DNA of 60,812 bases, filler included. It is 6 parts of 6 records of this genome, joined end to end, with 100 filler letters (N's around TTAATTAATTAA, not from the genome) between each part and the next. Parts side by side here need not be neighbours in the genome. Positions count along the whole stretch, not along the records: positions 48,847 to 54,083 come from SRR31156797_7632; 5 more parts are not named here. One strand, written 5' to 3'. Made by a program: the position numbers and the translations under genes. This document shows positions 42,978 to 60,233 of the stretch, piece after piece. Every line of letters begins with the position of its first letter. The first letter of the stretch is position 1. The notes under the pieces are model-generated. The model saw only the letters and a list, made by a program, of their open reading frames with translations. It had not been told where the DNA came from and ran no database searches.

Positions 42978-43006
42978 AGTTTAGTACAAAAAGTTCTAAA
43001 AGTCAA
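42978..43006 (-). promoter_or_regulatory. Sigma70 promoter of the LacI regulator
   Basis: TTGACT-17 nt-TAAACT on the minus strand. Confidence 0.65.
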
Positions 43007-43186: not shown

Positions 43187-43204
43187 TGAATTCACGTGTG
43201 CACA
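43187..43204. promoter_or_regulatory. Putative auxiliary LacI operator O2
   Basis: TGAATTCACGTGTGCACA. Confidence 0.6.
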
Positions 43205-43322
43205 AATTTATTAAAAAATATTTTTTTGATGAAGAGTTCAATAAACTCAATAAAAACAACAATAACCAACTGAATCAGAACTAAAAATACTATTTAAGAA
43301 CAAATAACTTATAAAAAAACTG

Positions 43323-43351
43323 TTGACTTTTAATTCCAGATAGTGTATAAC
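43323..43351 (+). promoter_or_regulatory. Sigma70 promoter of the ABC operon
   Basis: TTGACT-17 nt-TATAAC. Confidence 0.75.
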
Positions 43352-43364
43352 TTTACTACAAGGT

Positions 43365-43392
43365 TGCGCTAACGTGTGCACAGGTTGCGCAA
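43365..43392. promoter_or_regulatory. Putative LacI operator O3 (overlapping pair)
   Basis: TGCGCTAACGTGTGCACA overlapping TGTGCACAGGTTGCGCAA. Confidence 0.7.
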
Positions 43393-43482
43393 GATGAATA
43401 CAGTTTATCATTTCAGAAAAGATTCGAATAATACAAAACTCGAAAGCTTTTTAGATTAGAAATAATGTATGGAGGTGTAGTA

Positions 43483-44397
43483 ATGAGTGAAGTCTTAGCA
43501 CAAACTCAGAAAAGAAGGTCAAAGTGGGAGGAATTTCTTATCAATTTTAAAGGGCTTAAAAAGTACAAGCTGGAAATAGCAATGATTCTACCTTTAATTA
43601 TTTACATAATCAGTTTTACTTTAGTTCCTTTACTAAATACAATTTCACTTGGATTTAAAGACATTGATACTGGAAATTTTACATTAGCAAATTATACTTA
43701 CATATTTGAGCAAAGTGATTTTATAGCAGCATTAAGAAATACTTTAATAATCACATTTATGGGTCTGATTATCCAGATGACTACTGGATTAACACTTGCT
43801 CTTATATTAAACAAGATTAAAATGTTCAAAGGATTTTTTAGAACAATATTCCTTATTCCGATGGGAGTACCTACAATCGTAGCTGGTGTAGTTATGTCAT
43901 ATGTATTTAGTAGTACTGGATACTTAAATGAATTTCTATACAGATTAGGAGTTATCAAAGTGCCTATTGATTGGGCAAGTGGCGGAATTAGAAGTTTAAT
44001 GACAATTGCTTTTGCAGATACGTGGAAAGTAACACCGTTCATTACACTGATTCTTTTAGCAGGATTACAGTCGATTCCTAAGACAGTATATGAAGCAGCA
44101 GATATTGATGGTGCATCTACATGGAAAACATTCATTAATATTACGTTACCATTACTTAAGCCTGCAATTACAATGGCTTTAGTACTTAGATCAATTGATC
44201 TGTTTAGAATATTTGAGATTGTTATGACATTAACTGGTCAAACAGTACCTGTACTTGGTACATATGCTTATAATGAGTATAACCTGTACAACAATTCAAA
44301 TACATCAGGAGCGGCAGCAACAATATTATTAGTTATTATATTAGTATTTGTTACAACTTACCTTAAGTTATCAAGTAAAGGCGGTGATGTTGAATAA
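43483..44397 (+). CDS. Carbohydrate ABC permease (MalF-like)
   Basis: EAA loop 'YEAADIDGAS'; GGAGG RBS before MSEVL. Confidence 0.92.
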   Translation: MSEVLAQTQKRRSKWEEFLINFKGLKKYKLEIAMILPLIIYIISFTLVPLLNTISLGFKDIDTGNFTLANYTYIFEQSDFIAALRNTLIITFMGLIIQMTTGLTLALILNKIKMFKGFFRTIFLIPMGVPTIVAGVVMSYVFSSTGYLNEFLYRLGVIKVPIDWASGGIRSLMTIAFADTWKVTPFITLILLAGLQSIPKTVYEAADIDGASTWKTFINITLPLLKPAITMALVLRSIDLFRIFEIVMTLTGQTVPVLGTYAYNEYNLYNNSNTSGAAATILLVIILVFVTTYLKLSSKGGDVE

Positions 44398-45227
44398 TGG
44401 CTAAAACAACAGACTTATCAGGAAGAATCGCAAAATATTCATATTTTCCTGTATTAATAATAGCAGTTATTGTAATGATATTCCCTGTATATCTAATGTT
44501 CAAAATATCAGTAAGTGGACCGGCAGGAGTACTTACTCAACATCCTACTTTTTTAATCAAAGATTTTACATGGAAGCACTGGAATGACATATTTAGTTCA
44601 GGAAACCTATGGGGACCTTTATTTAAGAGTTTATCTGTAGCTACTACAGCAACAATTATCGCAGTAATAGTTGCATCACCGGCAGCATATGTAATATCGA
44701 GAATGGGTAAAACAATGAAATACCTTACTGTAATGATGTTATTCTTCACTAGAATGATGCCGGAAGTAGGAATTGCACTACCTATCTCAATCAAATTTAT
44801 TGAACTTAACTTATTAGATACAAATATGGGACTTGTTCTTGCTCACCTAATTAAAGTTATGCCATTCTTAGCATGGATACTTATAGGAACATTTGAAACA
44901 ATACCTAGAGATTTAGAAAAAGCAGCAGAGGTAGATGGAGCAACGAAATTGGGAGCATTACTACATGTAGTTTTACCAATATCAGCACCGGGAATCGCTG
45001 TAGGAGCAATGTTTGTTTGGCTAGAATCATGGAATGAATTTACATACGCACTATATATGACAATGGCTGAAACGACTCTGCCAGTTCAAATTTATTATTA
45101 TATAACAAGAGGTGGAATCTTCGCATCGTCAGCATATGCAACTATATTAACAGTTCCGGTAATTATTATCACTTTATTCTTACAGAAATATCTAAAAGAA
45201 GGATCTTTATCGGGTGCTATTAAGTAG
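44397..45227 (+). CDS. Carbohydrate ABC permease (MalG-like)
   Basis: 'LEKAAEVDGA', 'SWNEF', C-terminal 'GAIK'. Confidence 0.92.
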   Translation: MAKTTDLSGRIAKYSYFPVLIIAVIVMIFPVYLMFKISVSGPAGVLTQHPTFLIKDFTWKHWNDIFSSGNLWGPLFKSLSVATTATIIAVIVASPAAYVISRMGKTMKYLTVMMLFFTRMMPEVGIALPISIKFIELNLLDTNMGLVLAHLIKVMPFLAWILIGTFETIPRDLEKAAEVDGATKLGALLHVVLPISAPGIAVGAMFVWLESWNEFTYALYMTMAETTLPVQIYYYITRGGIFASSAYATILTVPVIIITLFLQKYLKEGSLSGAIK

Positions 45228-45405
45228 TAATAAATAATCACTAATATTAAATAAAATTATCAAGAAATAAATGAGGGTTTGTAAGAAATGTCTGTCACGA
45301 GATACTCTCCTAAAAATTTAATAAACTTAACTTTATATAAATCACCAGAGAGTATCTCTTTAAAATAGGAATTTATTTCCAAAATATTAAAAACGGAGGA
45401 AAGCT

Positions 45406-46638
45406 ATGAAAAAAGGATTACTATTGGTATTATTGGTTGGATTATTATCAACTACGGCTTTTGGAGGATTATTTGATATGTTCAAAAAGAACAAAAAGCC
45501 TAAAATGACTGAATTAAAAGTTGTAATGGGACTTGGTGAAAGTGAGTGGAAAGTTCTAAAAGAAGAGATCTTCCCGGCTTTCGAAGAAGAACATAATGTA
45601 AAAGTTGTACCTTATCAAATTGAAGCAGGAAATGTTATCAAGAAATTAGAAGCATTAGCAAAAGCAGGAAAATCAGATATCGATCTGATTGCACAAGATA
45701 ACATGGCATTAGCGCCACTTGTAGATAAAGGATTAGTAGAAGATTTAACAGGATACAAAAATATGGTTCCTGATAAAGTAATCCCTGCATTATTAAAAGT
45801 AGGAACTTTTAACAACAGATTATATTTCTTACCATTCAGACCAAATGTTGAAATCACTCTATATAATGAGAATAAATTCAACGAATATGGTTTAACTCCA
45901 CCTACAACATGGGACGAGTTATTAGAAGTAGCTAAAGTTTTCAAAGAAAAAGAAGGTGTTGGAAGAGTATTAGGAATTAAAGCAGGAGGAGCTGGAGATA
46001 CTACAGTTCACTTATTCGACTACATCAGATCAGCTGGTGGAGATCCATTAGTTCTTAATGACGCTGGAAGTGTAAAAGCATTTGAATTCTTAAAAGAATT
46101 ACAACCATACATGTCACCTGATTTCAAACAATCAACTTGGGATACAACTAACAAATTTACTGCAACTGAGTCTATGTACTTATCTCAGAACTGGCCATTT
46201 GCTGTAAACGTAATCGTAAAAGATGGTGGAAAGAAAGAAATTAAAGCATATGGTGGATGGCAAGGTCCTGAAAAAGCTTCACACGTATTAGGTGGAGATG
46301 TATTCGGAATTCCTATGAACAGTCCTAACAAAGAATTAGCTATGAAATTCATCGCTCATATGATGAGAAAAGATACTCAGGAAATATTAGTATCTAAATT
46401 AGGATGGTCTTCATCTAGATCAGATGCATATGGAACAGTTGAAGAGTGGCAAAAACCATACTTCAAAGCTGTAAACGATGCAATGGCATCTGCTGAACCT
46501 AGACCAAACGTTACTTACTGGACAACTGTTGATAAGTCATTAAACGGAGCATTCAAAGAAATTATGTTCAATGATGCACCTATCAAAGCGACTCTTGATA
46601 AGTATGCAGCTATGATTGAAAAAGCTAAAAATAAATAA
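45406..46638 (+). CDS. Sugar ABC substrate-binding protein
   Basis: SPase I-type signal peptide, 'PPTTWDEL', 'LGGDVFGI'. Confidence 0.9.
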   Translation: MKKGLLLVLLVGLLSTTAFGGLFDMFKKNKKPKMTELKVVMGLGESEWKVLKEEIFPAFEEEHNVKVVPYQIEAGNVIKKLEALAKAGKSDIDLIAQDNMALAPLVDKGLVEDLTGYKNMVPDKVIPALLKVGTFNNRLYFLPFRPNVEITLYNENKFNEYGLTPPTTWDELLEVAKVFKEKEGVGRVLGIKAGGAGDTTVHLFDYIRSAGGDPLVLNDAGSVKAFEFLKELQPYMSPDFKQSTWDTTNKFTATESMYLSQNWPFAVNVIVKDGGKKEIKAYGGWQGPEKASHVLGGDVFGIPMNSPNKELAMKFIAHMMRKDTQEILVSKLGWSSSRSDAYGTVEEWQKPYFKAVNDAMASAEPRPNVTYWTTVDKSLNGAFKEIMFNDAPIKATLDKYAAMIEKAKNK

Positions 46639-46710
46639 TCAATAATTTAATTAAAAACTTATATAACTCAGTGTTATCAACAAACACTACATTCCATAAA
46701 CTCTAAACTC

Positions 46711-46759
46711 GGGCTTTGCATAACGAACGTTCCCCGACAGAAGTAATTATGCAAAGCCC
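46711..46759. repeat. 13-bp inverted repeat after the SBP gene
   Basis: gggctttgcataa ... ttatgcaaagccc. Confidence 0.75.
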
Positions 46760-46883
46760 TAAAAATACAATCAAGATTTAATACAAAAATAGAACGCTAC
46801 TTAACAGAATTTTGAAGAGCAATATGAGATTCTGTTTTTTTATTAAAATTTGATAATAAAAACTACAAATTTTGGAGGATAAA

Positions 46884-48641
46884 ATGAAATATAATTTCAC
46901 TATTTTATCATTAGATAAAGAGATCGATCTTCAATACAGAATTGAGAGTAGAGACAATATTGACTATATATATTTTGAGATTAAAAGTGAAACTATCAGA
47001 ATTTTTCCTGAAGTAGAGCTAAGAATAGATGATTTTGATCTGCTTGATACACATTTTATGTGGCAAGCAACAGCGTATAGAGAGAAGCATTTTGAAATTT
47101 GCTGGGGAGATGAGGATAGAGGAGAGTTTATAAAGGGAACTTTATCAGCTCCAATAGCACAATTGGCGAGTAATAACTCCAGAAACAGATTAACTGTTGC
47201 TTATTCGGAAGTACTTGAAACTATTCAGTTTAAACCGGGAATCAAAGAAGAGGATGCTACAGGAGTAATTAAATTCAGACTATTTGTATCTGAAGAAAAA
47301 GCAAGAAATAAATTCTCAGGAGTTTTGAGGATTGATACCAGAGATATCAGAATGGAAGATTCAATTAGAGAGTGTGCAATGTGGTATGAAGATAAAGGTT
47401 ATAAGGTTATGCAGGTGCCTGAATCAGCTAAAGAGCCAATGTACTCAACATGGTACAGTTATCATCAAAAATTTACTGCTGAAGAAATAGAAATAGAATG
47501 TTTGAAAGCTAAAGCCTTGGGATGTAAGGCAGTAATAGTTGATGATGGATGGCAGACAGAGGATGGTAATAGAGGCTATGCATATACCGGAGACTGGGAA
47601 GTATGTGTCAATAAGATGGGGTCTATGAAGGAGCATGTTGGCAGAGTACATGATATGGGTATGAAATATCTGCTCTGGTACAGCGTGCCCTTTGTAGGAG
47701 TGTATGCCAAAGTTTGGGAAAGATTCCAAGATAAACTTCTTTATAAACTACCGGAATTAAAGTGTGGTGTTTTAGATCCCAGATATAGGGAAGTAAGAGA
47801 TTATCTTGTAGAAACATATAAAAAGGCACTGCTGGAATGGGACTTAGATGGTTTCAAATTAGATTTTATAGATGAATTTGATATTCAGCGAGCTCAGGGT
47901 AAAGCACTGGAAGATGACAAAAACAGAGACTTTTCATCTGTGCAGGAAGCTGTGGAAGCATTACTTAGATCAATAAGAGATGAACTGCAAAATATCAAAG
48001 CAGACATTATGCTGGAATTTAGGCAAAAATATATAGGGCCTTTTGTGAGACAGTTTGGAAATATCCTGCGTGTAGCGGATTGCCCAATGGATTATATAGC
48101 TAATAGAAATGGAATAGTTGATTTGAGATTATTCTCAGGCGAGACAGCAGTTCATTCAGATATGATCATGTGGAACTATAATGATACTACGGAGAGTGCA
48201 GCACTGCAATTTATAAATATCTTGTTTGGAGTCCCTCAGATATCTATTAAATTAGAAAAGATTCCGGATGAACACTATAAAATGTTAAGTCACTATATGA
48301 AATTTTGGCAAGAGAATAAAGAGTTGCTCCTAAACGGGAAACTTTATACAAAATCAATGGATTGTAATAATTTAGCAATAAGTTCAATAAAAGATAATAA
48401 AAACATAACAGCAATTTACAGTGATACAGTATTTGAATTAGATCATGAATATAATGAAATAATTCTGATTAACGGTAAGCTAACAGAGAATTTAATTATA
48501 AAAATGAACAAAGAGATGATATATAAATATGAAAGTTTTGATTGCAAAGGCGAGATAACAGGAGAAGGTTTGGTTGGCACTGAGTTAGCGATACTTGAAG
48601 TAAAAAAATCAGGGTACGTTAAGTTGGGAATTCAGGGATAA
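46884..48641 (+). CDS. GH36-like alpha-galactosidase
   Basis: 'YSTWYS', 'IVDDGWQ', 'DGFKLDF' clan GH-D motifs. Confidence 0.85.
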   Translation: MKYNFTILSLDKEIDLQYRIESRDNIDYIYFEIKSETIRIFPEVELRIDDFDLLDTHFMWQATAYREKHFEICWGDEDRGEFIKGTLSAPIAQLASNNSRNRLTVAYSEVLETIQFKPGIKEEDATGVIKFRLFVSEEKARNKFSGVLRIDTRDIRMEDSIRECAMWYEDKGYKVMQVPESAKEPMYSTWYSYHQKFTAEEIEIECLKAKALGCKAVIVDDGWQTEDGNRGYAYTGDWEVCVNKMGSMKEHVGRVHDMGMKYLLWYSVPFVGVYAKVWERFQDKLLYKLPELKCGVLDPRYREVRDYLVETYKKALLEWDLDGFKLDFIDEFDIQRAQGKALEDDKNRDFSSVQEAVEALLRSIRDELQNIKADIMLEFRQKYIGPFVRQFGNILRVADCPMDYIANRNGIVDLRLFSGETAVHSDMIMWNYNDTTESAALQFINILFGVPQISIKLEKIPDEHYKMLSHYMKFWQENKELLLNGKLYTKSMDCNNLAISSIKDNKNITAIYSDTVFELDHEYNEIILINGKLTENLIIKMNKEMIYKYESFDCKGEITGEGLVGTELAILEVKKSGYVKLGIQG

Positions 48642-48746
48642 AATTAGAGTATAAAATAATAAATATAATATTTCAGTGTTTTCAAAATATTTTAAAATAT
48701 TTTTTAGAACAATTCAAAAAAAGAATCAATTTTGAATTAAGAAATA

Positions 48747-48846
48747 NNNNNNNNNNNNNNNNNNNNNNNNNNNNNNNNNNNNNNNNNNNNTTAATTAATT
48801 AANNNNNNNNNNNNNNNNNNNNNNNNNNNNNNNNNNNNNNNNNNNN
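48747..48846. other. Artificial contig linker
   Basis: N-TTAATTAATTAA-N. Confidence 0.98.
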
Positions 48847-49139
48847 GCTCAAAGATCACAAAAGAAAGGAGACTTTGTTTAATATATAGGGCAAGATGAA
48901 GGCGTTGTTATGAGGGAAAATCTAAAACTGTACGAACTATTGTTGGAAAAGCATCATCAATAGCTATGAAGCTGATTCGATACTTTGAATTGCTGTATTT
49001 TGATTGACAAAAAGCAAGTTCCTATCCTATATCTTATACTTACTGGTTACATCGCAGCCTTCCATGACATCCCGGAGCCACGATGGTGTAGAATCGGTCC
49101 CAGTGGCAGAGTGCGGAGATCGTGCTATATTCGTTCAGG

Positions 49140-49355
49140 GTTAGACAGATCGCTTTGATTCACGCATTTGGGCATATGATCGGACTTGGAGACGAATACA
49201 CCTCAAGGACCAGGGGCGTTCCGCTGGGAGCCTGTACTGGTCATGTAGAGTGACAGTGTGATGAGCGTAGGCGAAGTGATTCACCTGGCATTGCGCCACC
49301 TTTTTGGAGGCGCTGGAGATAATACCCAGAATTTGAGGCGATTGGACGGTGGGCC
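49140..49355 (+). pseudogene. Degenerate zinc-metallopeptidase (metzincin-like) domain remnant
   Basis: QIALIHAFGHMIGLGDEY at 49146-49199, then after frameshifts DSVMSVGEVI and HCATFLEAL; contains stops. Confidence 0.6.
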
Positions 49356-49560
49356 GGGAATCTCATTCTGCGCACTTTTTCAGGAATCGGATAGGCCGGA
49401 GACAAAGTAGCAGTTCTTAATATTGCTCCGGCAATTAAATATATTATTGTTTGTAATCCCTACAGATTCAAGACCTATATAATACAGGGGACTCAAGGAC
49501 CATAGGCCCTAAATTGGGTCTCGTATTAAATTGCCGGATTAATATTAAACGGGGATATCC

Positions 49561-52500
49561 ATGGGGACAACATACGCCTTACAAAAAAAAGAACTTCAGA
49601 AGGAACCTTCGCCATCGTCTCCGAATGTGGAGAAGAAATCCGGCGAGATCCTTAAGGTTCAGGCACCTGAATCAGGTGTGCCGGTTTTCCTGCAGAATAT
49701 GGCGTTGTCGTCCCCGCCTCCTTCGGTTCAGCGGAAATTTTTCGATGATGAAACGGAAGATGAAGGTGTGCAGGCAAAACTCACGGTGGGTAATCCTGAT
49801 GACGAGTATGAACGGGAAGCGAACCGCGTTGCCGATACTGTGATGCGCATGCCCGAGGCATCGGATCGAGATATCCTTGACGAGGGGCAGGAACCGGTTG
49901 AAAAAGATTCCGTTATTCAGGCAAAGATATTTGAATCTGAGACTGTCCAGGCAAAAAACAAACAGTCTGTCATCGGTTCCGATGATATGAGCCGGCCCGC
50001 TGAAAATTCCGATGGGGGGACCTCTCTTCCCGAAAGCACCCGCTTACGTATCGAACCGGTTCTGGGAACAAGCCTTAACCATGTGGCCGTTCATGATACC
50101 CCGAGTTCGCGTAAGGCGGCCCGGTCCATTCAAGCTAAGGCTTTTACCCATCGTAACCATATATATCTGGGTGAAGGACAAAGTGCCCATGATGTTTCTC
50201 TTATGGCCCATGAAGCCGCCCATACGGTTCAGCAGTCTTATGGGATGATTCAGCATCTTCAGCGTGTGGATGAAGACGATGTTTCCGGTGAAGGAGGGGC
50301 GAATCAGGCGGGCAATGCCAATCCGCATCCGCTTTCGTCTTACTATTTGTTGCTTTTCATCCTGCCGGCTGAAGAGATGGATGCATTGGAACAGGCTGCG
50401 TTGCGGCGTGAAGCCGTCAGGCGTGGCGAAACTTATGATGGACCTTTGGGAATCACCAAAACATCATCCTATCCATTGGCTGATTTTCTTCCTGATTCGG
50501 CGTCGTTTGAAAGCCGGGAGGCTATTCTCGGCCAATATTTCTCCGGACTGGGTACGCCCCATGGACCCAGCGGCGGTGCAGGAATCGCCGCCCGTGAAAT
50601 CGCCCGGAATGAGACCCTGCGCCATTATTTGGGACATTTTGAGGATAGCCAGGTTGAAGTGGAACTTGTTGATCCGGACGGCCTTGAAGATACACCGACC
50701 CGTCTGCGTTTTTTTGTCGACGGTATGGAAGTTCAGGACCGGGCCGGTGAAATTTCCGTGGAAAGCTTGGACGATTTTGCCCCTGAACCACTTTTTGTTG
50801 TGGCGGACAATCAAGGCCTGGCCGTTGAACAATTGATTCACATTGCCGTTGCCCTTGAACAGGGCCGCGAGGCACTTCCTGAAGTCCGAGTCCTCAACGA
50901 TCAGATCAGGTGTGACCCGGGGCAAACCAGCGTCAATGGCGCAAGGTCTCTTGTCAATGCAATTAACCAGTTTTCTTCCCGTGTTGTTCAGTTAAGAGAC
51001 GGCATATACGACGAAAATCTGGATAAGCTTGATGCGATGACGAGTCTTGCAACGGAAAGCATTGAGGTTCGGGACCTTGTTGCCGACCTGCCGCGATGGC
51101 TCAGGCAGTGGCAGGGGCCGAGTATACCGGAAGAGACGGCCGGTGAATTCTGGATGAATGAAGAGGCCTCCATTGAACGCACCATGGCCGCCAATGCGGA
51201 GGCAGGGGGCATATACTATGCGGCCATTGGCGTGAATGCATTAGAATGGGCATCGGTTCAGATTTATAGGCTCTGCGGGAATTTTATGACTCTCGGCTAT
51301 ATGGATCGCGAAGCCAGGAATGCCATGGCCTATCGCCGGGGGGAAATTTCAAATTCGGCTTATGCGGAGAATATCTGGTGGAACATGGGAGCATCCGCTC
51401 TCACGGCTGTGGTGATTGTTTTGACCGCAGGTTGGGGGGGACGGCTGGCAGGATTTTTGGGCGCCGATTTAACGACCGGTGCGGGAATGATGACTGCCGG
51501 AACTGTTGAAGGCGTTACAATCGGTATGAGCACGGCGGTTGGGGCTGATGCTTACAGTGCTATTATCGGGGCTACGCGGGATGATCCTTATGTCAGCGGG
51601 TATCACGAAAGCGCCGTTATGGGGCCGGAGGGCTGGATCGAGGCGGGTCTGGCCGGCGGTCTGTTCGGTGGTGTCCTCACATGGGGGGCTTTGAGGTCTG
51701 CCGGGCCGGGTCCCATAGCTTTTGTTCGCCCCCGTTCCGAAGGTGGGATCGAAGTTATACCCGCTGAACTTGAGGCCGGGGCAGCAGCAGATTTTGTGGA
51801 ATCTGCCGTCGGTACTCGGGCAACAGCGATTCCGGAATACACTGGTTCCAGGATTACGGCGGTGCCGGAATACTTCGGTTCCAGTTCAACGGCGATACCG
51901 GAATATGTCGGAACTAGAGCGACTGCGGTCCCCGAAGGTGCTGGCCCGAGAATAAGAGTTGTTCCCGAAGGTGTCCCCGAAGTTTCAACCATTCTTGATC
52001 CGACGGGAACTCCGTTCGGCGCGGCGGAATATGTGGCCGCCGGAGGTATGGTTTACGAACCGGCTATCTATGGTGAAGTCGGAGGACGTATTGTACGAAT
52101 CAATCCCCGTACCCCACCCGACGTGACCCTATACGGCCCCCATGGTCAAGTGGTCGCAGGAAGGGGCGCTGGTGCAGTTGAACCGGAATTGTTTGGGCCT
52201 CGGGGAGAGCCCGTTACCGGCCCCAGGGCTCCGATTGATCCCTCCCGGGAGATTGTCGTCTGGGGAGATGCCGGATGGGAAGCCGTACCGGGAAATGCAC
52301 CAATCACAAGCCGAAGTACCGGCCGTACGGCTTTGCAATGGCAGCATTATGAATCTCAAGTAGAGGCCCATTTGGGGGCGGGGCCGGGGGAACGTCAGGT
52401 TTCAGTGGCTCTTCCCCGTCCCATGAGATTTTCCGGGCGACAAGGCCCACAGACCTCTATCGAGGCAGATGTTGCTTTAGCGGACAGATCCGTGTATGGA

Positions 52501-52794
52501 GAGAGCAAATGCAGAAACTATGAACACTCGCGTTTCGGAGAGGTAAATGCGGTGGACATGGCAGGTTCCCTTGAACGGCTGTATGTGGCGTCTGGCATTG
52601 AGGCCAGGGTCATTCCTGCGGCGTCCTCGGCTGATTTTGTTGTGGTCTCAAGCCGTCCCATTCCTGCAGCCACAACCCGTATCGTTATGCGGACCATTGG
52701 TGAATGGATGCAGGGGAACGGCTACAGTACGTCGGCTATATACGATTTCCTCTCTCGGATACGATTTGTTCATTTACGGCCCAGCCGGCCATAA
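49561..52794 (+). CDS. DUF4157 (eCIS core) domain protein with putative C-terminal PD-(D/E)XK nuclease toxin
   Basis: 'QAKLTVGNPDDEYEREANRVAD', 'AKAFTHRNHIYLG', 'LMAHEAAHTVQQ'; Gly/Ala-rich hydrophobic helices; C-terminal YE...EAD...GESK. Confidence 0.85.
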   Translation: MGTTYALQKKELQKEPSPSSPNVEKKSGEILKVQAPESGVPVFLQNMALSSPPPSVQRKFFDDETEDEGVQAKLTVGNPDDEYEREANRVADTVMRMPEASDRDILDEGQEPVEKDSVIQAKIFESETVQAKNKQSVIGSDDMSRPAENSDGGTSLPESTRLRIEPVLGTSLNHVAVHDTPSSRKAARSIQAKAFTHRNHIYLGEGQSAHDVSLMAHEAAHTVQQSYGMIQHLQRVDEDDVSGEGGANQAGNANPHPLSSYYLLLFILPAEEMDALEQAALRREAVRRGETYDGPLGITKTSSYPLADFLPDSASFESREAILGQYFSGLGTPHGPSGGAGIAAREIARNETLRHYLGHFEDSQVEVELVDPDGLEDTPTRLRFFVDGMEVQDRAGEISVESLDDFAPEPLFVVADNQGLAVEQLIHIAVALEQGREALPEVRVLNDQIRCDPGQTSVNGARSLVNAINQFSSRVVQLRDGIYDENLDKLDAMTSLATESIEVRDLVADLPRWLRQWQGPSIPEETAGEFWMNEEASIERTMAANAEAGGIYYAAIGVNALEWASVQIYRLCGNFMTLGYMDREARNAMAYRRGEISNSAYAENIWWNMGASALTAVVIVLTAGWGGRLAGFLGADLTTGAGMMTAGTVEGVTIGMSTAVGADAYSAIIGATRDDPYVSGYHESAVMGPEGWIEAGLAGGLFGGVLTWGALRSAGPGPIAFVRPRSEGGIEVIPAELEAGAAADFVESAVGTRATAIPEYTGSRITAVPEYFGSSSTAIPEYVGTRATAVPEGAGPRIRVVPEGVPEVSTILDPTGTPFGAAEYVAAGGMVYEPAIYGEVGGRIVRINPRTPPDVTLYGPHGQVVAGRGAGAVEPELFGPRGEPVTGPRAPIDPSREIVVWGDAGWEAVPGNAPITSRSTGRTALQWQHYESQVEAHLGAGPGERQVSVALPRPMRFSGRQGPQTSIEADVALADRSVYGESKCRNYEHSRFGEVNAVDMAGSLERLYVASGIEARVIPAASSADFVVVSSRPIPAATTRIVMRTIGEWMQGNGYSTSAIYDFLSRIRFVHLRPSRP
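51808..51972 (+). repeat. 5 x 33-nt degenerate coding tandem repeat
   Basis: VGTRATAIPEY / TGSRITAVPEY / FGSSSTAIPEY / VGTRATAVPEG / AGPRIRVVPEG. Confidence 0.9.
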
Positions 52795-52809
52795 TATAAG
52801 GACCGTTGA

Positions 52810-53970
52810 ATGGTTAACAGCAAGAAAAATGAAGACCACTGGTTAGGAGCGGTGGTTAATGTTGTCACCCGGGATACCGGGGTAATGTCAGGGTTGATGA
52901 GGGCATTTAAATCAGCGGGACTTGAGCCTGATTATTATACTGTGGTACCCGTCACATCCGAAATTGCAAAACGATCCTTGACCGATACCCTTTCCGGCTT
53001 TCTTCGCGAAAGCGCAAAGGCCCCTGAAAACATACGGAAGCCTTTTGATTGGCGAGCATTCATGTCTTCTTTGGCGCATGAAGGTACGGCATGGATCGAA
53101 TTGGGCAACCGCGCATCGGACTGGATGATCCGGGTGCCCATGGAGCCCGGGTTTATTGCCGGACGATTCAACCCCGGGTTCATGGATATTTTGGGTAAAC
53201 CGTTTATCGAAGCGGCAAGTCATGTGTTTGACATGTGCCTTACCGATTGGGGGCTTTGCGGTCCGAGATCAATTCTTGAAAAATTTTTTGCACATATTCA
53301 TTATACCGAAATCGATACCCCCGTAAAACTCCCGGGTACGGGCTGGCTGAATTATCTGTCCACGGATTTCGCTTACCAGGAAGATGTCATGCGATTACGG
53401 GATATTAAGGGTTGGCGTATTATTCGAACCTATTCCGGGGCAACGGTGTTTGTTCTCAGGTCAACGGGTGATGACGGAGACATTGGCCGTTTTCGTTCCG
53501 ATGCGTCAAATTATTTTAAACCCTGGGCAAGACCGCTCGTCGATGTTTACCCGCTTCCTGACCGTACCCTGCTGCTTCGGGATGTTTCACCCGGATTTGC
53601 TGATTTTCAAAAATATATTTCCGGTGCGGCTTTTGAACATGCTGCAAATAAGGGATGCTTAAACCTGAGGTTCGATCTCCCAAGTCTTGAAAAGATTGAC
53701 GCCTGCCTTGGAACGGAAGGACGTTTCCTCCCGTTTTATGTTCTTGAAGGCTGGAGTGCGATCGCCGGTGAAGTGGCTGTGGCTTTTTGCGGTAAATGGC
53801 GAAGAATTTTGAATCCTAAATTGGGATTCCCGGAAAATTTTCTGGTTGAACTTCCGGGGGGAATAACCTTCCAACCCCATGTTTCACTAATGGATTATTT
53901 GGAAAATAGAATCGAATTAACCCCTGCGCAGGTTCTTCGTATGCGGCTGCAACAAATCGGTGCCGCATGA
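52810..53970 (+). CDS. Hypothetical protein, candidate immunity protein
   Basis: 15 nt downstream of the toxin-like gene, same strand; 'GWLNYLS' and 'FDLPSLEKID...GEV...GKW' motifs. Confidence 0.6.
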   Translation: MVNSKKNEDHWLGAVVNVVTRDTGVMSGLMRAFKSAGLEPDYYTVVPVTSEIAKRSLTDTLSGFLRESAKAPENIRKPFDWRAFMSSLAHEGTAWIELGNRASDWMIRVPMEPGFIAGRFNPGFMDILGKPFIEAASHVFDMCLTDWGLCGPRSILEKFFAHIHYTEIDTPVKLPGTGWLNYLSTDFAYQEDVMRLRDIKGWRIIRTYSGATVFVLRSTGDDGDIGRFRSDASNYFKPWARPLVDVYPLPDRTLLLRDVSPGFADFQKYISGAAFEHAANKGCLNLRFDLPSLEKIDACLGTEGRFLPFYVLEGWSAIAGEVAVAFCGKWRRILNPKLGFPENFLVELPGGITFQPHVSLMDYLENRIELTPAQVLRMRLQQIGAA

Positions 53971-54083
53971 AACGGAATGCTTATAAGGGTGCCACCCATA
54001 TTCGCGCGTAAATATACGCTAAGGATTTTTCATAAAAAATATGGCAAAAAATAAGCCCTTTGAATTCCAGCCCTCATCGAGGT

Positions 54084-54183
54084 NNNNNNNNNNNNNNNNN
54101 NNNNNNNNNNNNNNNNNNNNNNNNNNNTTAATTAATTAANNNNNNNNNNNNNNNNNNNNNNNNNNNNNNNNNNNNNNNNNNNN
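54084..54183. other. Artificial contig linker
   Basis: N-TTAATTAATTAA-N. Confidence 0.98.
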
Positions 54184-56589
54184 ATTGAATCTTTAGAAGT
54201 TTTGAAAGATGCTTCTGCTACTGCAATTTATGGATCAAGAGGAGCTAATGGCGTAATTTTAGTTTCAACCAAACGAGGACGAGATGGTAAAATTCAGGTA
54301 GCCTATAATGCATATATGGGAATTCAGAAATTGGCGAATAAGATGGATTTGTTGGATGCTGTTACTTATGCTGAAACGATCAATGAAAAACGCTTGTTAA
54401 CAGGAGGATCTGCAGAATATACAGAAGAACAAATAAAGAACTTTAAAGAAAATGGTGGAACAGATTGGCAAGATGAAGTTTATCGTACAGCAATTACTCA
54501 AAGTCACGATTTGTCTGTAAGTGGTAAAAAGGATGGATTTAATTTTCTTTTTTCAGGTCAATATTTAAATCAAGAAGGAATTCTGAAGAATTCTAAATTT
54601 GAACGATTTAGTTATAGAGCCAACGTTGACGTTGATCTTACTGAGAAATTAAAAATGGGTGTACGCATTAATGGAATTATAAGTAAAGATCGTCCGCATA
54701 AACTGAGTTGGCCGAATGGATCTATATCGAACGATGCAATTACAATGGAACCTACTTTACCAGTTTTTGATGAAGAAGGAAATTATACTCGTTCATCATT
54801 TGCAACGGTATCAAATCCTGTAGCTGATTATATGGAGCAGAATCATTATATAGATAATGTGAAGCAAAATTTAAATGCATATTTTGATTACCAAATCTCT
54901 GAAAAATGGAATTTACGTGTTTCAGGTGGATTCAATACAAGAGATTATGTGTCCAACCAATATTCTAGTGTGGACTTGTATGCAGGAGAAGGTGATAATG
55001 GTCGTGCAAGTATTTCCAATAAGAAATACTATATATGGCAGAATACGAATATTTTAAGCTATAAGAACAAAGTTGGGAAACACAAACTTGATTTTACTTT
55101 TGTGAACGAACAAACAGGTTCTAAAACTCAAGGATCAAGTTTATCTACGAAGAACTTTGATGTTGAAAACGGATACTATGATGTTTCGTTAGGTAAAGAG
55201 CCTTTAGCTCCTTCATCGTCTTTTGTAGATTGGCAATTGATGTCTTTTTTAGGACGTTTCAATTATGTGTACAATGATAAGTATTTATTAACTGTGGCAA
55301 TGAGAGCCGATGGTTCCTCTAAGTTTGCAGAGAATGAAAAATGGGGTTATTTTCCAAGTGGATCTTTGGCATGGCGCATATCAGAAGAGGATTTCATGAA
55401 AAATCTTACTTTTCTGGATAATTTAAAATTGCGTTCCAGTTTCGGTATTACAGGTTCTCAAGCTACAAATCCATATCAATCTAAAGGATTAATGAGCACT
55501 GGTGTTAATTATGCAGTTGATGGATCTTCAGTTAGTGTAGGTATTGCTCCAGCCCGTTCCGCAAATCCAAATTTGTCATGGGAAAAAACATCGCAAATCG
55601 ATTTGGGTTTTGATATGACCATTTTAGATGGGAAATTCACTTTTACAGCAGATTATTACTATAAAAAAACAACTGACTTATTACTAGAAGTTGCTGTTCC
55701 TTATTATACCGGATTTAAATCAGAATTTAAAAATTTAGGTGAGGTAGAAAATAAAGGGGTTGAATTCAGCTTGGAAAGTAATTTAAGTCATGGTGAACTT
55801 AATTGGAACTCTAATGTAACGTTCTCTCTTAATAGAAACAAAGTATTAGATCTTGGTGATGTTGATAAGATTTTAATGGGAGATAATAATGCGATTTCGA
55901 TGATTCAAAAAGGTGAATCTTTGGGGTTAATTTATGGATATAAATTTGATGGGATTTGGCAACAAAATCAAGCCAATGAAGCTGCTGTTTATGGGAATAA
56001 ACCTGGAGATGCAAGATTTGTAGATGTTAATGGAGACAATACTATAACGGCTGATGACAGAACAATTATTGGTCATGGATATCCTAAGTGGAGTATGGGT
56101 TGGTCTAATTCTTTAAGTTACAAGAATTTTGATATGAATATTCTATTTACAGGAATCTTTGGTAATGAAGTTATGAATGAAGTTTATAGTCGTACCATGG
56201 GATGGGGAAATCAGGATCCGACCAATAAGGATATTTTGAAAAGATGGACTCCTGAAAACGAAAGTAATTCGATTCCAGCCTTTAGTAACACTTATAAAAC
56301 TTCGTATTTAAATAACTCTTCAGCTACCGTTGAAGATGCATCTTTTATCAGATTAAGTAATATCTCTTTAGGCTATACATTCAGTCAATCTTGGTTGAAA
56401 AAATGTAACATTAGTAAGCTGAGAGTTTATGCAAGTGGTCAAAACTTATGGACATCAACGGATTATAAGGGATACGATCCTGAAGTAAATAATGCAGGAG
56501 GATCTCAAGCCGATTATCGTGTTGGTTTTGATAGAGCACCTTATCCTAAAGCAAGAATCATAACTGTAGGTTTAAATCTTACATTTTGA
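54184..56589 (+). CDS. susC: SusC/RagA TonB-dependent transporter (5' end cut by contig end)
   Basis: 'LKDASATAIYGSRGANGVI', 'RADGSSKF', 'NPNLSWE', C-terminal 'GLNLTF'. Confidence 0.95.
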   Translation: MESLEVLKDASATAIYGSRGANGVILVSTKRGRDGKIQVAYNAYMGIQKLANKMDLLDAVTYAETINEKRLLTGGSAEYTEEQIKNFKENGGTDWQDEVYRTAITQSHDLSVSGKKDGFNFLFSGQYLNQEGILKNSKFERFSYRANVDVDLTEKLKMGVRINGIISKDRPHKLSWPNGSISNDAITMEPTLPVFDEEGNYTRSSFATVSNPVADYMEQNHYIDNVKQNLNAYFDYQISEKWNLRVSGGFNTRDYVSNQYSSVDLYAGEGDNGRASISNKKYYIWQNTNILSYKNKVGKHKLDFTFVNEQTGSKTQGSSLSTKNFDVENGYYDVSLGKEPLAPSSSFVDWQLMSFLGRFNYVYNDKYLLTVAMRADGSSKFAENEKWGYFPSGSLAWRISEEDFMKNLTFLDNLKLRSSFGITGSQATNPYQSKGLMSTGVNYAVDGSSVSVGIAPARSANPNLSWEKTSQIDLGFDMTILDGKFTFTADYYYKKTTDLLLEVAVPYYTGFKSEFKNLGEVENKGVEFSLESNLSHGELNWNSNVTFSLNRNKVLDLGDVDKILMGDNNAISMIQKGESLGLIYGYKFDGIWQQNQANEAAVYGNKPGDARFVDVNGDNTITADDRTIIGHGYPKWSMGWSNSLSYKNFDMNILFTGIFGNEVMNEVYSRTMGWGNQDPTNKDILKRWTPENESNSIPAFSNTYKTSYLNNSSATVEDASFIRLSNISLGYTFSQSWLKKCNISKLRVYASGQNLWTSTDYKGYDPEVNNAGGSQADYRVGFDRAPYPKARIITVGLNLTF

Positions 56590-56643
56590 TTTATTGATAA
56601 CTAATGTAAAGTCGTTATTAACAATCTAAATTTGGAATCAAAA

Positions 56644-58173
56644 ATGAATAATATATTAAATAAAGTTACGATTGGACTTAGCCTTTTGTTGGGATTCGGT
56701 CTTATCACATCTTGTGATCTACTGGATGAAGAGGATACTTACCTTATGAGTCCTGATAATTATTTTTCAACGGAACAAGAGTTAGATGCCGCAATCTATC
56801 CTATATACAATTACATTTTTAAAGATGACAGCCGTTTGAATGGCTTAAGTGGACGTGGCTGGGGATTAAATTGTGGAGCAGATGATATTACATCAACAAG
56901 AGGATTGAATAAGCAGCGATTATTGGAATTTGATGATTTTGAAGTTTCGACCGAAAACAATGATTTGGAGATGGTGTGGAAAGCTTTGTACAGATCTATT
57001 GGAGCTGCTAATAATATTCTTCAAAATATTGAACAAATTCAGGAAATTCCTATGTCTGATGATACGCGAAATGAGAGAATTGGAGAAGTTCGATTTTTAC
57101 GTTCACTGTCTTATTTTTATCTTGTTAGATTCTGGGGAGAAGTGCCTATTATAGATGAACTAATGAATGGAGAACAGGCTCAATCTGCCAGAAAAGCTTC
57201 TATTCAAGATGTATATGATTTTATTCTTGCCGATGCTTTGGACGCTGAAAAGTTACTACCTGTTCAACAAATGGATAAAGGGCGTCCGACTCAAGATGCA
57301 GCGAAAACTTTACTTTCGTATGTTTACTTGCACATGGCAGGTTGGCCTTTAGAGAAAGGAACAGAGTACTATCAAAAATCAGCCGATAAGGCAAAAGAGA
57401 TAATTGATGCAGCCAATTATCAATTAGAATCGGAATTTGCTACACTTTGGTCTTTTGAAAAACGATTGTCAGAAAAGGAACATATTTTTGCTTTTTATCC
57501 TGATTTTTCTTCAAATAGAAATTATGGTTCTTTTGGAAATAAAGCATTTAGAGGTAAAGATGAAGGTGGATGGAGAGAGGTACTTGTTGAAAAGGAATTC
57601 GCTCGCAATTACCCACTTGATAATCGAAGAGAATGGACTATTTATGATACTCTTAAATATGACAAAAAAGGGAAACTTCTTCCAGAGTCGAAATGGAAAT
57701 CTTGGGATAAATCGGTAGAGGCTCATCCATTTATTGCAAAATATAGAGATATAGGAGGAGCTGTCTGGAAAGAAGCGACTTCAAATGCTTTATATCCTAT
57801 TTTTAGATTCGCAGATGTTCTGTTAATTTATGCAGAAGCATCTAATTTAGCGGAAGGATCTCCTTCATCAAGCGCATATGCAGCATTATGGGCAGTGCAG
57901 GATAGAGCTTACCTGGGAAGTGCAGCAGAAGCTAATAGACTGAATGCAGGAGCAACAAGTGAGGAATTTGATTCAGCAGTTCTTTCGGAGAGATCCTGGG
58001 AGTTTGCATTTGAATTAAAGCGTTGGCACGATTTGGTTCGTAGAAAAAAAGTAAAAGAGGCAAATTTAAACCATATGGATGAAAGAAGCGATTTTGATCC
58101 TTCAAGAATAACGGAATTGAATTATCTATTTCCAATTCCTGCTCGAGAGAAACTAATTAATCCAAATCTATAA
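56644..58173 (+). CDS. susD: SusD/RagB lipoprotein
   Basis: Lipobox 'ITSC', 'FRFADVLLIYAEA', 'ER.WEFAFE..RWHDLVR', 'FPIP'. Confidence 0.95.
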   Translation: MNNILNKVTIGLSLLLGFGLITSCDLLDEEDTYLMSPDNYFSTEQELDAAIYPIYNYIFKDDSRLNGLSGRGWGLNCGADDITSTRGLNKQRLLEFDDFEVSTENNDLEMVWKALYRSIGAANNILQNIEQIQEIPMSDDTRNERIGEVRFLRSLSYFYLVRFWGEVPIIDELMNGEQAQSARKASIQDVYDFILADALDAEKLLPVQQMDKGRPTQDAAKTLLSYVYLHMAGWPLEKGTEYYQKSADKAKEIIDAANYQLESEFATLWSFEKRLSEKEHIFAFYPDFSSNRNYGSFGNKAFRGKDEGGWREVLVEKEFARNYPLDNRREWTIYDTLKYDKKGKLLPESKWKSWDKSVEAHPFIAKYRDIGGAVWKEATSNALYPIFRFADVLLIYAEASNLAEGSPSSSAYAALWAVQDRAYLGSAAEANRLNAGATSEEFDSAVLSERSWEFAFELKRWHDLVRRKKVKEANLNHMDERSDFDPSRITELNYLFPIPAREKLINPNL

Positions 58174-58177
58174 TTTT

Positions 58178-58210
58178 AACCGATCCGGTTTTCCGGATCG
58201 GTTTTTTTTT
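58178..58210 (+). terminator. Intrinsic terminator after susD
   Basis: aaccgatccgg-tttt-ccggatcggtt plus T-tract. Confidence 0.9.
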
Positions 58211-58548
58211 ATGCGATGTTAGTATATCGATTAAAAAAAGCATTGATATCATGCTCAATGTTGTTTGTCAAATTTCAACTACTCAATTTTCCTTTCCTAA
58301 TATAAAACACTTTCTGCTATTGATCTCTTTGATATTTTTGTTTCCAATATCATTCAATTATATGCTGTAATTATTCAATACAACAATTGAATTGGATGAT
58401 TTATTGGTGTTTGGACAATATTGGAGATTTTCTGAATGAATATATCATCTAGTCGTTTTGAGGCTTAGATACATTTATGCAGTCGTTTTCGGAACGATGA
58501 TGAAATTCGGAAAAAATCTAATACTAATCTTTATCAAAAAACTAATCA

Positions 58549-60144
58549 ATGAATTATTCAAACGATTGTAAAGGTAAATGGCGTTTGAGATCGAAATGGT
58601 TGGCAGTATTAATTACAATACTGGCACCTTTATCATTCTCATGTGATGACGACGATTCTGTTGGGGAAATTTTAGCTCCAAGTGGATTGCGTTATGCGTC
58701 GGTTACTGAAGTGTACGAAGGAAAAGGAATGGAATCTGCTAAACCGGTTGTTTTATCTGATACGCAACCAATTTTTGAAATTGCTGGCGGAACGGCTGAA
58801 GACAATGGTGTATATGTAGAAAATACATTTACAATTAAAGATTCGACAGGAGTTGTTAGTCTTGTAAACGAGAATATTTTAGTAGCAGGATTATATAAAC
58901 TAGATATTAAGGTTAAGAATAATTCGGGAGAGAATGTATTTCCTGCAGCTTTTGAGTTAAGAATATTACCTAGTCTGGCGGAAGACTTAGTCTTTACTCC
59001 ATCAATTCAAACGATTTCAAAAGATTTTGCAGGATCGAAAACTACAGGTCCTGTTTTTAAAGGTAGCAAACCTGCTACATACGCATTGGTAGATAACTCT
59101 CAGTTTGCAATTGATGAAAATACAGGAGAAATATCCTTGCAGGATGGAGTGGATGTTGCTGAAGGAAACTACAACCTGTCCGTTAAGGTTATTAATGCAG
59201 CTGGTGAACAAACATTCGAAGATGCACTTACCGTAAAGCTTGTAAACAAATCTTTCTCATTCACCAATCCAACAGCTAGTGTAACCGAAGGAAAAGAATT
59301 TGTATCTGAAACTCCTTCTGCATTTGGAAATGGAACATTATCTTTTGCTTTAGTCGACGATTTTGGAGCTTTTAAAATCAATGCTGAAACTGGAGTAATA
59401 TCATTAGATGCTGGAAATCCACTAACCAAAGGTGATTACAAATTATCAGTAATAATGACAAGTGATGCCGGAGATGTAACCTATAATGATGTATTGACTG
59501 TTACCATTGAAGCTCCAACTTTACAGATGGTATTCGAAGATGGATGGCAAGAATTAGGATATGCAAATGGTGAGCATCAGCTTGGTAATTTTACACAATT
59601 CGATTTAAAAAATGCGGGTTATCAGGACAGTAAATTAAGATGGGTTAATTCATGGGGATTGAATACCACATTAAGAAATATTGATGGAGAAAAAGCTCCA
59701 ACTGCCGAAATGAAAGGTAAGAAGGAAGCTGGAGTAAATACTGAGAATGATGATTGGTTGGTTTCTGGGAATATTGATTTGACAGATGTAAGCGATCCGG
59801 GTATTTTGATTCATATCTTCCAATTGTATGTTTGGGATGTAGCAAATAGTGTAGCAAAAAGAAGTGACAAAGTTACGATCAAGGTTTCTGAAGATTTCGA
59901 AGGGGATGTAACTACAGCGAATTGGAACACTTTGTATGAATTTACTCCTGAAGAAATTTATCAAGAAGCTTATAAAAGTTATGCTCAAAGAATTCCTCGA
60001 GTGTTCGATTACAATACAAAGAATGAATTGAGCTTGAAAACTTATGAAGGTAAGGTAATTACAATTGCAATTCATGTAGTTGCAGAGGATCAATCTACGG
60101 GAGATATAGGTGTTCAAAAATTCCAGGTCTTTGGATTGAAATAA
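58549..60144 (+). CDS. Surface lipoprotein with three cadherin/Ig-like repeats and a C-terminal DUF5017-like domain
   Basis: Lipobox 'SFSC'; repeated 'F.I...TG.ISL...G.Y.L.V'; 'NDDWLVSGNIDL'. Confidence 0.7.
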   Translation: MNYSNDCKGKWRLRSKWLAVLITILAPLSFSCDDDDSVGEILAPSGLRYASVTEVYEGKGMESAKPVVLSDTQPIFEIAGGTAEDNGVYVENTFTIKDSTGVVSLVNENILVAGLYKLDIKVKNNSGENVFPAAFELRILPSLAEDLVFTPSIQTISKDFAGSKTTGPVFKGSKPATYALVDNSQFAIDENTGEISLQDGVDVAEGNYNLSVKVINAAGEQTFEDALTVKLVNKSFSFTNPTASVTEGKEFVSETPSAFGNGTLSFALVDDFGAFKINAETGVISLDAGNPLTKGDYKLSVIMTSDAGDVTYNDVLTVTIEAPTLQMVFEDGWQELGYANGEHQLGNFTQFDLKNAGYQDSKLRWVNSWGLNTTLRNIDGEKAPTAEMKGKKEAGVNTENDDWLVSGNIDLTDVSDPGILIHIFQLYVWDVANSVAKRSDKVTIKVSEDFEGDVTTANWNTLYEFTPEEIYQEAYKSYAQRIPRVFDYNTKNELSLKTYEGKVITIAIHVVAEDQSTGDIGVQKFQVFGLK

Positions 60145-60233
60145 GAAATAATTGAATTAATAGAAATACGATCCTGGAAGGTTGTGAGTTGAATTGAAGG
60201 GAATTCAGGATCGTAATTCAAATATGATAGCAA

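Follow-up and report, generated by a model that had tools for sequence, protein, structure and literature searches.

The window analysed here, a stretch of 60,812 bases, is not a single molecule: N..TTAATTAATTAA..N spacers link the six contigs of which it consists. Its fifth contig carries two neighbouring genes, P0001 and P0002, which an initial annotation, made from the letters alone, had put forward as an undescribed eCIS-type toxin-immunity pair (eCIS, extracellular contractile injection system). Both reading frames are open over the whole of the proposed extents. P0001 encodes a protein with a DUF4157 (eCIS_core) domain towards its N-terminus and a C-terminal tail that our structural model and its conserved residues support as a nuclease-fold toxin domain, and P0002 encodes a family-less protein that could be the cognate immunity protein. 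The pair also occurs, with the same spacing and at 94% identity, on an 11-kb contig, L001, which we used for comparison throughout. The features of the two genes, in window coordinates, are the following.

49561 to 52794, plus strand: effector gene P0001, an open reading frame (ORF) of 1077 amino acids (aa), a DUF4157 carrier with a predicted C-terminal nuclease-fold toxin domain
49561 to 50025, plus strand: N-terminal leader, residues 1-155, of low complexity, with the motif 'QAK...DDEYEREANRVAD.VMRMPE'
50026 to 50238, plus strand: eCIS_core/DUF4157 domain, residues 156-226 (Pfam PF13699, E 3.2e-18, 66.1 bits, cut-off 22)
50209 to 50223, plus strand: HEAAH (HExxH) motif, residues 217-221, inside the DUF4157 region (exact position)
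50329 to 51360, plus strand: middle region, residues 257-600, common to full-length relatives with the same tail (blastp)
51361 to 51720, plus strand: Gly/Ala-rich, marginally hydrophobic segment, residues 601-720 (Kyte-Doolittle maximum 1.6; ratio of non-synonymous to synonymous substitution rates, dN/dS, 0.046)
51814 to 51945, plus strand: 'TA(I/V)PEY.G' repeat linker, residues ~752-795 (Tandem Repeats Finder: period of 33 nt, 2.6 copies, 51821-51905)
52258 to 52791, plus strand: predicted C-terminal PD-(D/E)XK (restriction-endonuclease-fold) toxin domain, residues 900-1077, ~180 aa (relatives, model and conservation)
52351 to 52353, plus strand: E931 in WQHYE, helix 1 of the tail (conservation and model)
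52468 to 52470, plus strand: D970, end of strand 2 (invariant in 18/18 tails)
52501 to 52509, plus strand: E981-S-K983 (YGESK), strand 3 (D/E in 18/18 tails, K and R985 invariant)
52798 to 52802, plus strand: AAGGA, Shine-Dalgarno-like, 7 nt ahead of the P0002 ATG (sequence)
52810 to 53970, plus strand: partner gene P0002, an ORF of 386 aa, family-less, candidate cognate immunity protein
53989, no strand: 3' end of the two-gene module, where L001 and the contigs of other sequencing runs cease to be similar to the window, 19 nt past the P0002 stop

The N-terminal part of P0001 agrees with what the initial annotation had described, with the DUF4157 domain, its HExxH motif and a leader motif all in place. 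The N-terminus contains '...VQAKLTVGNPDDEYEREANRVADTVMRMPE', and residues 1-226 show 46% identity to a second DUF4157 protein encoded on L001, these 226 residues being all that the two proteins have in common. eCIS_core is the sole Pfam family in P0001, and PAAR, VgrG, LXG and signal-peptide features are absent. DUF4157 has been described as an eCIS marker found on proteins with C-terminal toxins, with a high specificity for eCIS (odds ratio 2614; Geller et al., PMC8213781), and 983 of 1130 predicted DUF4157 effectors are reported to have no annotated second domain (Danov et al., PMC11297309). The sequence features of P0001 support its assignment as a DUF4157/eCIS_core polymorphic effector.

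Beyond the DUF4157 domain, residues ~257-710 can be aligned with three other tail-bearing proteins, P0005, P0021 and P0009, in alignments that span 616-634 residues and show 35% identity (E 1e-93 to 1e-97), and the middle aligns more weakly with seven further ones. A word-indexed search of the middle region gave P0036 as its sole match, a protein of 1077 aa on a 3.9-Mb contig with 98% identity over P0001 residues 234-879. A protein-atlas search with residues 234-760 reached a best score of 0.79, and PT-TG and eCIS_core clusters scored 0.77; we treat these scores as no more than leads and draw nothing from them. The Gly/Ala-rich stretch, which the initial annotation had placed at ~51380-51710, lies at 51373-51720 (residues ~605-720) and is the most constrained part of P0001. 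Compared with the L001 copy, the gene as a whole has a dN/dS of 0.30, its N-terminus one of 0.48 and its tail one of 0.40, and the 0.046 of the hydrophobic segment corresponds to 1.5 non-synonymous vs 10.5 synonymous differences. A hydrophobic window lies 200-300 residues ahead of the tail in most of the tail relatives that share the middle region. The repeat linker was also found as annotated. The L001 effector copy is 10 residues longer (1087 vs 1077 aa); the alignment has gaps near residue 245 and near residue 776, and the latter gap falls inside the PEY repeat linker, whose length may vary by slippage or recombination. Together with the dN/dS of 0.35 for the P0002 gene against its L001 copy, the value for the P0001 gene indicates that both genes are under purifying selection.

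Family and fold of the C-terminal tail

To define the family of the tail, we ran a full HMMER scan with residues 880-1077 against 1.84 billion cluster representatives, which returned 17 relatives at E <= 0.001, 13 of these at E <= 1e-10. In 14 of the 17, the tail is the extreme C-terminus of a longer protein (446-1521 aa), and the other three proteins are short (127-170 aa). Pfam places eCIS_core in eight of the relatives and the combination of PAAR, RHS and DUF6531 in one, P0016, which has only the tail in common with P0001. P0009, P0014 and P0019 have no Pfam match, yet their middle region is common with P0001, and they resemble copies of the P0001 architecture that have been cut at the N-terminus. 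All ten of the relatives that were looked up come from metagenome sources. Because the second L001 DUF4157 protein shares residues 1-226 only and the PAAR-RHS protein shares the tail only, the leader plus DUF4157 can be seen as one unit of exchange and the nuclease tail as a second, which is the pattern of polymorphic toxins. The tail is a portable module of predicted toxin function, since a PAAR-RHS protein also ends in it.

The initial annotation could not assign the tail to a named Tox-REase family. None of the 18 tail-bearing proteins matches a nuclease family of Pfam at E <= 1, the Tox-REase families of Pfam-A included, and the tail alone has no match in Pfam at E <= 10, none in NCBIfam at E <= 0.1 and no PHROGs model. 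A tblastn search of the tail against plasmids gave no match. Scans of genome contigs returned 29 stretches with an alignment of six tails and 50 stretches with P0001, and a scan of viral contigs returned 23 stretches; none of these was confirmed. A word-indexed search for proteins of near length gave 328 candidates with the tail, none of which scored; the word-indexed protein search is insensitive here, having missed P0005 despite its blastp E of 2e-97.

We aligned the 18 tails, those of P0001 and its 17 relatives, to locate the conserved residues. D970, K983, R985 and one Gly are invariant in all 18, position 981 is D or E in all 18, and a Pro directly precedes D970 in 11. E931 and Q964 are conserved at 90% or more, with E931 present in all 17 tails that cover that region. 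From this alignment, the predicted catalytic quartet is E931...(P)D970...(D/E)981-x-K983. The initial annotation had pointed to the pattern WQHYE...IEADV...YGESK; the three motifs are present where it had placed them and D970 and E981/K983 belong to the conserved set, whereas the E of 'IEADV' is not conserved among the 18 aligned tails.

An AlphaFold2 model of the tail, built from the 18-row alignment, is confident (mean predicted local distance difference test, pLDDT, 90.0; predicted template modelling score, pTM, 0.83), with only the first 20 residues disordered. In tail numbering, the model runs through a helix at 47-59, strands at 66-76, 85-93 and 99-104, a helix at 114-135 and a strand at 146-151, followed by helices, and thereby contains the alpha-beta-beta-beta-alpha-beta core of the PD-(D/E)XK superfamily. 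In the same numbering, helix 1 holds E52, strand 2 holds D91 and strand 3 holds (D/E)102-x-K104; D91, K104 and R106 are invariant in 18/18 tails. In the model, this placement of E931, D970 and the ExK motif is the textbook PD-(D/E)XK layout. The tail motif is not a chance match, because all 18 sequences conserve it and because, in a confident model, it occupies the secondary-structure elements where it would be expected.

For structural neighbours, we compared the tail model with 48,161 chains by VIA-align. The best row is 2okf (Z 8.1, root-mean-square deviation (rmsd) 3.2, 111 residues aligned), followed by NucS (2vld, Z 7.3), AF1548 (Z 6.7) and N.BspD6I (Z 6.7). TseT, a type VI secretion (T6SS) effector, appears as 9oz0_B and 7dym_A at Z 6.7 and 6.6 (rmsd 4.0, 110-112 aligned), and CdiA-CT, 4g6u, at Z 6.7 (rmsd 4.7, 131 aligned), with Card1, Can2, FokI, NucC, McrC, BglII, Avs3 and Avs4 in lower rows. 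Among the top 28 rows, 27 were recognised from their titles as restriction-endonuclease-fold nucleases and one, 9wuf, was unplaced; the first clearly unrelated entry is at rank 29. The weak Foldseek rows, those above E 0.001, include LmuA, Cap4, Avs3, Can2, PspGI, CdiA-CT and NucS, and a second look over Foldseek's top 1000 rows agrees with the nuclease neighbours of VIA-align. When tail profiles were run against PDB sequences, all that came back was designed helical repeats and chance matches. Taken together, the model, its neighbours and the conservation support the restriction fold proposed at the outset, with the P0001 tail as a predicted PD-(D/E)XK-fold domain that retains an intact, conserved catalytic set.

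The same neighbour list bears on the substrate. It includes two PD-(D/E)XK toxins of contact-dependent inhibition (CDI) systems, 5j4a (Z 5.1) and 4zqu (Z 5.5), the former of which we take to be a tRNase, and the tail could by analogy be an RNase, for example a tRNase, instead of a DNase. We consider this unlikely, given that most of the structural neighbours are DNA nucleases and that BaCT, a DUF4157-linked PD-(D/E)xK toxin, is described as degrading DNA (PMC7073777).

The partner gene and the proposed cassette

The closely spaced downstream gene of the initial annotation was confirmed: P0002 starts 15 nt past the P0001 stop. It lies directly 3' of the toxin gene and is co-inherited with the toxin module, in that three different sequences begin 19 nt past the P0002 stop in three contexts, namely the window, L001 and the contigs of other runs. 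P0002 is a plausible immunity protein, to judge from its tight linkage to the toxin gene, the purifying selection on it, its inheritance together with the toxin gene in three contexts and a ribosome-binding site apparently of its own. We favour, at a probability of roughly 55%, the reading that P0001 and P0002 are the toxin and the immunity protein of one cassette, which belongs to a contractile injection system (CIS) and in which the tail would be a PD-(D/E)XK phosphodiesterase and P0002 would block this nuclease.

In the mechanism that we propose for this cassette, the leader and the DUF4157/eCIS_core domain would mark P0001 for a phage-tail-like injection particle, as suggested by the published distribution of the family (PMC8213781, PMC11297309, PMC11126660). 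The helical and Gly/Ala-rich hydrophobic middle probably aids packing in the tube or passage through a membrane of the target. The tail, with the fold and catalytic residues predicted by model and conservation, would act as a Mg-dependent PD-(D/E)XK phosphodiesterase whose most likely substrate in the target cell is DNA, and P0002, judged from its linkage, would most likely protect the producer by binding to this nuclease and inhibiting it. It is speculative, and based on analogy, that the hydrophobic segment helps the toxin to cross a membrane; a hydrophobic segment reportedly plays such a role in the T6SS effector Tse6. A membrane-crossing role has also been proposed for the hydrophobic part of Tme, a DUF4157 protein discussed below (PMC11126660). 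A bolder version, in which the hydrophobic module (dN/dS 0.05, kept in full-length relatives) is a built-in device for translocation across the cytoplasmic membrane of a bacterial target and P0002 is an immunity protein of an unseen fold, the two defining a new effector-immunity family of marine-sediment bacteria, appears doubtful to us.

Several results weigh against the cassette reading. On the side of the tail, Foldseek found no match to the model in the PDB at E <= 0.001 (best 0.031), and all VIA-align Z values are at or below 8.1, which the tool grades as middling; because of these middling values, the case for the restriction-endonuclease fold rests jointly on the one-sided match list, the placement of the motif and its conservation. 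The 19-residue Kyte-Doolittle maximum of the Gly/Ala-rich segment is just 1.6, which is marginal and not that of a classical strong transmembrane helix. An hmmscan of PHROGs found no families at E <= 0.1, tape-measure families included, with either whole P0001 or residues 234-879. On the side of the partner, searches of Pfam (E <= 10), PHROGs and NCBIfam place P0002 in no family, and it has no match among the sequences of solved structures in the PDB. In a word-indexed collection of 5.8 billion sequences, where all 3,068 candidates were scored, a single cluster passed, at 93% identity; with just one relative cluster found there, P0002 homologues are not visible at the other tail-bearing loci. 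CIS structural genes are present neither on the 5.2-kb contig nor on L001, where only effector-like genes lie, and the sheath, tube, baseplate and DUF4255 families have no match among the 38 larger ORFs of the other contigs. As Geller 2021 and Danov 2024 use the term, an eCIS-associated toxin is encoded within an eCIS structural operon, with its sheath, tube, baseplate, DUF4255 and AAA+ genes, or at most ten genes away from it. Finally, many eCIS toxins are described as having no immunity gene (Geller et al., PMC8213781).

Other approaches to P0002 gave leads or no answer. An AlphaFold2 model from a 3-row alignment was unusable (pLDDT 30.7), and a predicted complex of the tail with P0002, for which controls were not run, scored 0.00 and was returned as 'no answer', which has no bearing on binding either way. 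In the protein-atlas search, three unnamed clusters of 409-448 aa, with Myxococcota as the commonest phylum, scored 0.91 (leads, not evidence), and there were weaker leads to a DUF5953 cluster (0.76) and an Imm52 cluster with 18% Imm52 members (0.75). P0002 has no Pfam match to Imm52 at E <= 10, and the PDB sequence search shows no row for TsiT, the immunity protein of TseT, at E <= 10. A metagenome scan with P0002 returned L001 only.

Some of these observations would also fit a different role for P0002, that of a second cargo, an adaptor or a chaperone travelling with the DUF4157 gene, with the toxin reading of P0001 kept. Its 386 aa are large for an immunity protein, its one relative cluster stands against 17 relatives for the tail, and eCIS toxins that lack DUF4157 are reported often to adjoin DUF4157 genes, with DUF4157 perhaps serving in trans as a chaperone (PMC8213781, PMC11297309). 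We regard this role as a possible, less favoured alternative to immunity. P0001 already has an apparently intact nuclease-type toxin domain, which usually needs neutralisation by its producer, the 15-nt spacing and the co-inheritance up to 19 nt past the stop fit a toxin-immunity cassette, and the Imm52 and DUF5953 scores, which are leads only, point the same way.

The surroundings of the pair on L001 bear on how such a cassette might be used. At L001 7065-10761, minus strand, lies the convergent gene of the second DUF4157 effector (973 aa, eCIS_core E 3e-23), followed by an unrelated ORF of 252 aa. The C-terminal half of this effector has no clear family, with a weak DUF6861 match at E 0.0023, and the two genes are a possible second toxin-partner pair. 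At L001 170-1933, minus strand, a divergent ORF of 587 aa carries an HExxH motif, 'AGHEAAHQLQ', near its N-terminus and has no Pfam match at E <= 5; it may be a third effector of the DUF4157 type that has diverged. The genes of L001 make up an effector array, in which a small unrelated neighbour lies beside each large gene.

Tme of Streptomyces davawensis offers another model of use. It combines DUF4157 and membrane helices with a C-terminal endonuclease, to which its toxicity is due (Nagakubo 2024, PMC11126660), and P0001, with the same layout of N-terminal DUF4157, predicted membrane helices and C-terminal endonuclease, might likewise be a tape-measure-like CIS cargo that acts on the producer's own population, through cell death and DNA release, and not on other cells. 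This is improbable in our judgement. P0001 is half the length of Tme, whose truncated C-terminal domain, Tme-C, comprises residues 2030-2247 (PMC11126660), and PHROGs shows no similarity to tape-measure proteins; the Tme authors' own tape-measure comparison used profile-profile methods, which are more sensitive than the PHROGs hmmscan. The linked candidate immunity gene also argues against it, as does the array, in which small partner ORFs accompany several DUF4157 genes, and the PAAR-RHS protein with the same tail points to interbacterial use.

As to the delivery particle, a membrane-anchored T6SS-like CIS, or no CIS at all, might take the place of an extracellular one. DUF4157 proteins are reported to be secreted by a haloarchaeal T6SS-like CIS (PMC11566945), DUF4157 sometimes occurs in T6SS effectors (Danov et al., PMC11297309), and the lack of structural genes on the contig, on L001 and among the 38 other ORFs would be consistent with either option. 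We consider them rather unlikely, in view of the eCIS specificity of DUF4157 cited above (Geller et al., PMC8213781) and of the domain content of P0001, which is eCIS_core alone, with none of the features of PAAR, VgrG, LXG or signal-peptide export.

Genomic setting and occurrence

The contigs, spacers and flanking features of the window are the following.

1-14544, 14645-21671, 21772-41653, 41754-48746, 48847-54083 and 54184-60812: the six contigs
14545-14644, 21672-21771, 41654-41753, 48747-48846 and 54084-54183: the N spacers
48847 to 54083, no strand: fifth contig, with the effector and partner genes, 5,237 bp, GC 0.514, from a metagenome, with N..TTAATTAATTAA..N spacers at both ends
49092 to 49410, plus strand: broken reading frames 5' of the effector gene, with the metallopeptidase-like remnant 'IALIHAFGHMIGLGDEY'

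The GC of the six contigs ranges from 0.32 to 0.51, and with so mixed a composition they need not share one organism. The fifth contig is as short as the initial annotation had said, and the structural genes are indeed not on it. The metallopeptidase-like remnant is possibly the decayed end of another effector, and ~280 nt at 49212-49492 are missing from the L001 copy. Scans for promoters (6 sites vs 5.4 expected) and terminators (5 vs 6.2 expected) were not informative.

Parts of the gene stretch occur in 18 public runs from 9 studies, whose readable labels are marine sediment or sediment metagenomes. Four runs aligned to the stretch contain variants that are ~97% alike across all 30 bins, and one DNA run has a single spanning contig of 5,285 nt. 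Contigs from metatranscriptomes (X10 and X14, from one marine-sediment study) cover 49400-53989 and bridge the gene junction; such libraries can contain DNA, and a single contig across two genes from an RNA library does not show a single transcript.

Elsewhere in the window, genes truncated at the joints reflect contig ends and are not pseudogenes; examples are fragments of AdoHcyase (132 aa) and LeuRS (333 aa) and a SusC-like ORF that lacks its plug. A BREX locus at 3990-14369, minus strand, has BrxA, BrxB, BrxC, PglZ and BrxL; the PglX methyltransferase is not among them. Between BrxC and PglZ lie only a family-less ORF of 209 aa and a 273-aa protein with HATPase_c_4 and Fic-like_C. The BrxC of this locus is 965 aa long, and its last domain is cut at 82 of 123 profile positions.

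Comparison with known systems

Five sets of published systems resemble the pair. One is BaCT with its immunity protein BaCTic, a PD-(D/E)xK DNase toxin family that no domain library covered at the time of its description (Jana, Salomon & Bosis 2020, PMC7073777). BaCT is a C-terminal PD-(D/E)xK toxin with an invariant (D/E)xK, some members have an N-terminal DUF4157, and the immunity gene follows immediately 3' (PMC7073777). It differs in that it is ~300 aa long, is found nearly only in Bacteroidetes and is mostly borne by TANFOR carriers, whereas the partner of P0001 is a 386-aa orphan; the comparison of the two was by description only (PMC7073777).

The T6SS pair TseT-TsiT of Pseudomonas aeruginosa (PA3907-PA3908; 7dym, 9oz0) likewise has a restriction-endonuclease-fold C-terminal toxin and a downstream immunity gene, and the PAAR-RHS protein P0016 has a tail of the P0001 type. 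There is no sequence-level relation between TseT and the P0001 tail, going by the 18 tails and the Tox-REase families of Pfam (E <= 1), and the carrier of P0001 is of the DUF4157 and not of the T6SS type. TseT is presumably a Tox-REase-5 toxin and TsiT an Imm52 protein. In CdiA-CT(EC869)/CdiI (4g6u) and other PD-(D/E)XK CDI toxins, a small restriction-endonuclease-fold toxin also ends a polymorphic carrier and is blocked by a cognate immunity protein; these differ in type V (CDI) filament delivery and have no sequence similarity to the P0001 tail.

Among DUF4157 proteins, Tme resembles P0001 in its N-terminal DUF4157, its predicted membrane helices (marginal in P0001, Kyte-Doolittle maximum 1.6), its coiled or disordered middle and its C-terminal endonuclease, and differs in that its nuclease is EndA-like (DRGH, H-N-N) and not PD-(D/E)XK, and in being about twice as long (PMC11126660). 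The Tme gene sits directly 5' of the baseplate genes and is the largest ORF of its cluster (PMC11126660). The haloarchaeal DUF4157 pairs and eCIS-associated toxins share with P0001 and P0002 an N-terminal DUF4157, a long linker, a variable toxin and a downstream gene (PMC11566945, PMC8213781, PMC11297309). The haloarchaeal proteins are toxic when expressed and are neutralised by the genes directly downstream; they have other toxin domains and partners and were tested at the bench, whereas P0001 and P0002 are known from sequence (PMC11566945).

The word undescribed in the initial annotation is thus right for the tail family and the partner protein and not for the kind of system, since nuclease effectors that carry DUF4157 and have an immunity gene downstream of them have been published before, as BaCT, Tme and the haloarchaeal pairs (PMC7073777, PMC11126660, PMC11566945). 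Relatives of P0001 may be among the many predicted toxins that Geller 2021 and Danov 2024 tabulate in their supplements. Confirmation of our reading would add a family and no new principle. One unannotated end of a DUF4157 effector resolves here into a rare, well-defined family of predicted PD-(D/E)XK toxins with clear catalytic residues on two delivery carriers, the conserved hydrophobic module would give a concrete handle on the route of CIS cargo into the target cytoplasm, and the orphan partner P0002 is directly testable for immunity. Compared with the known systems, what is new, as judged from the models of Pfam, NCBIfam and PHROGs, is the tail family, together with the orphan partner and the conserved middle module.

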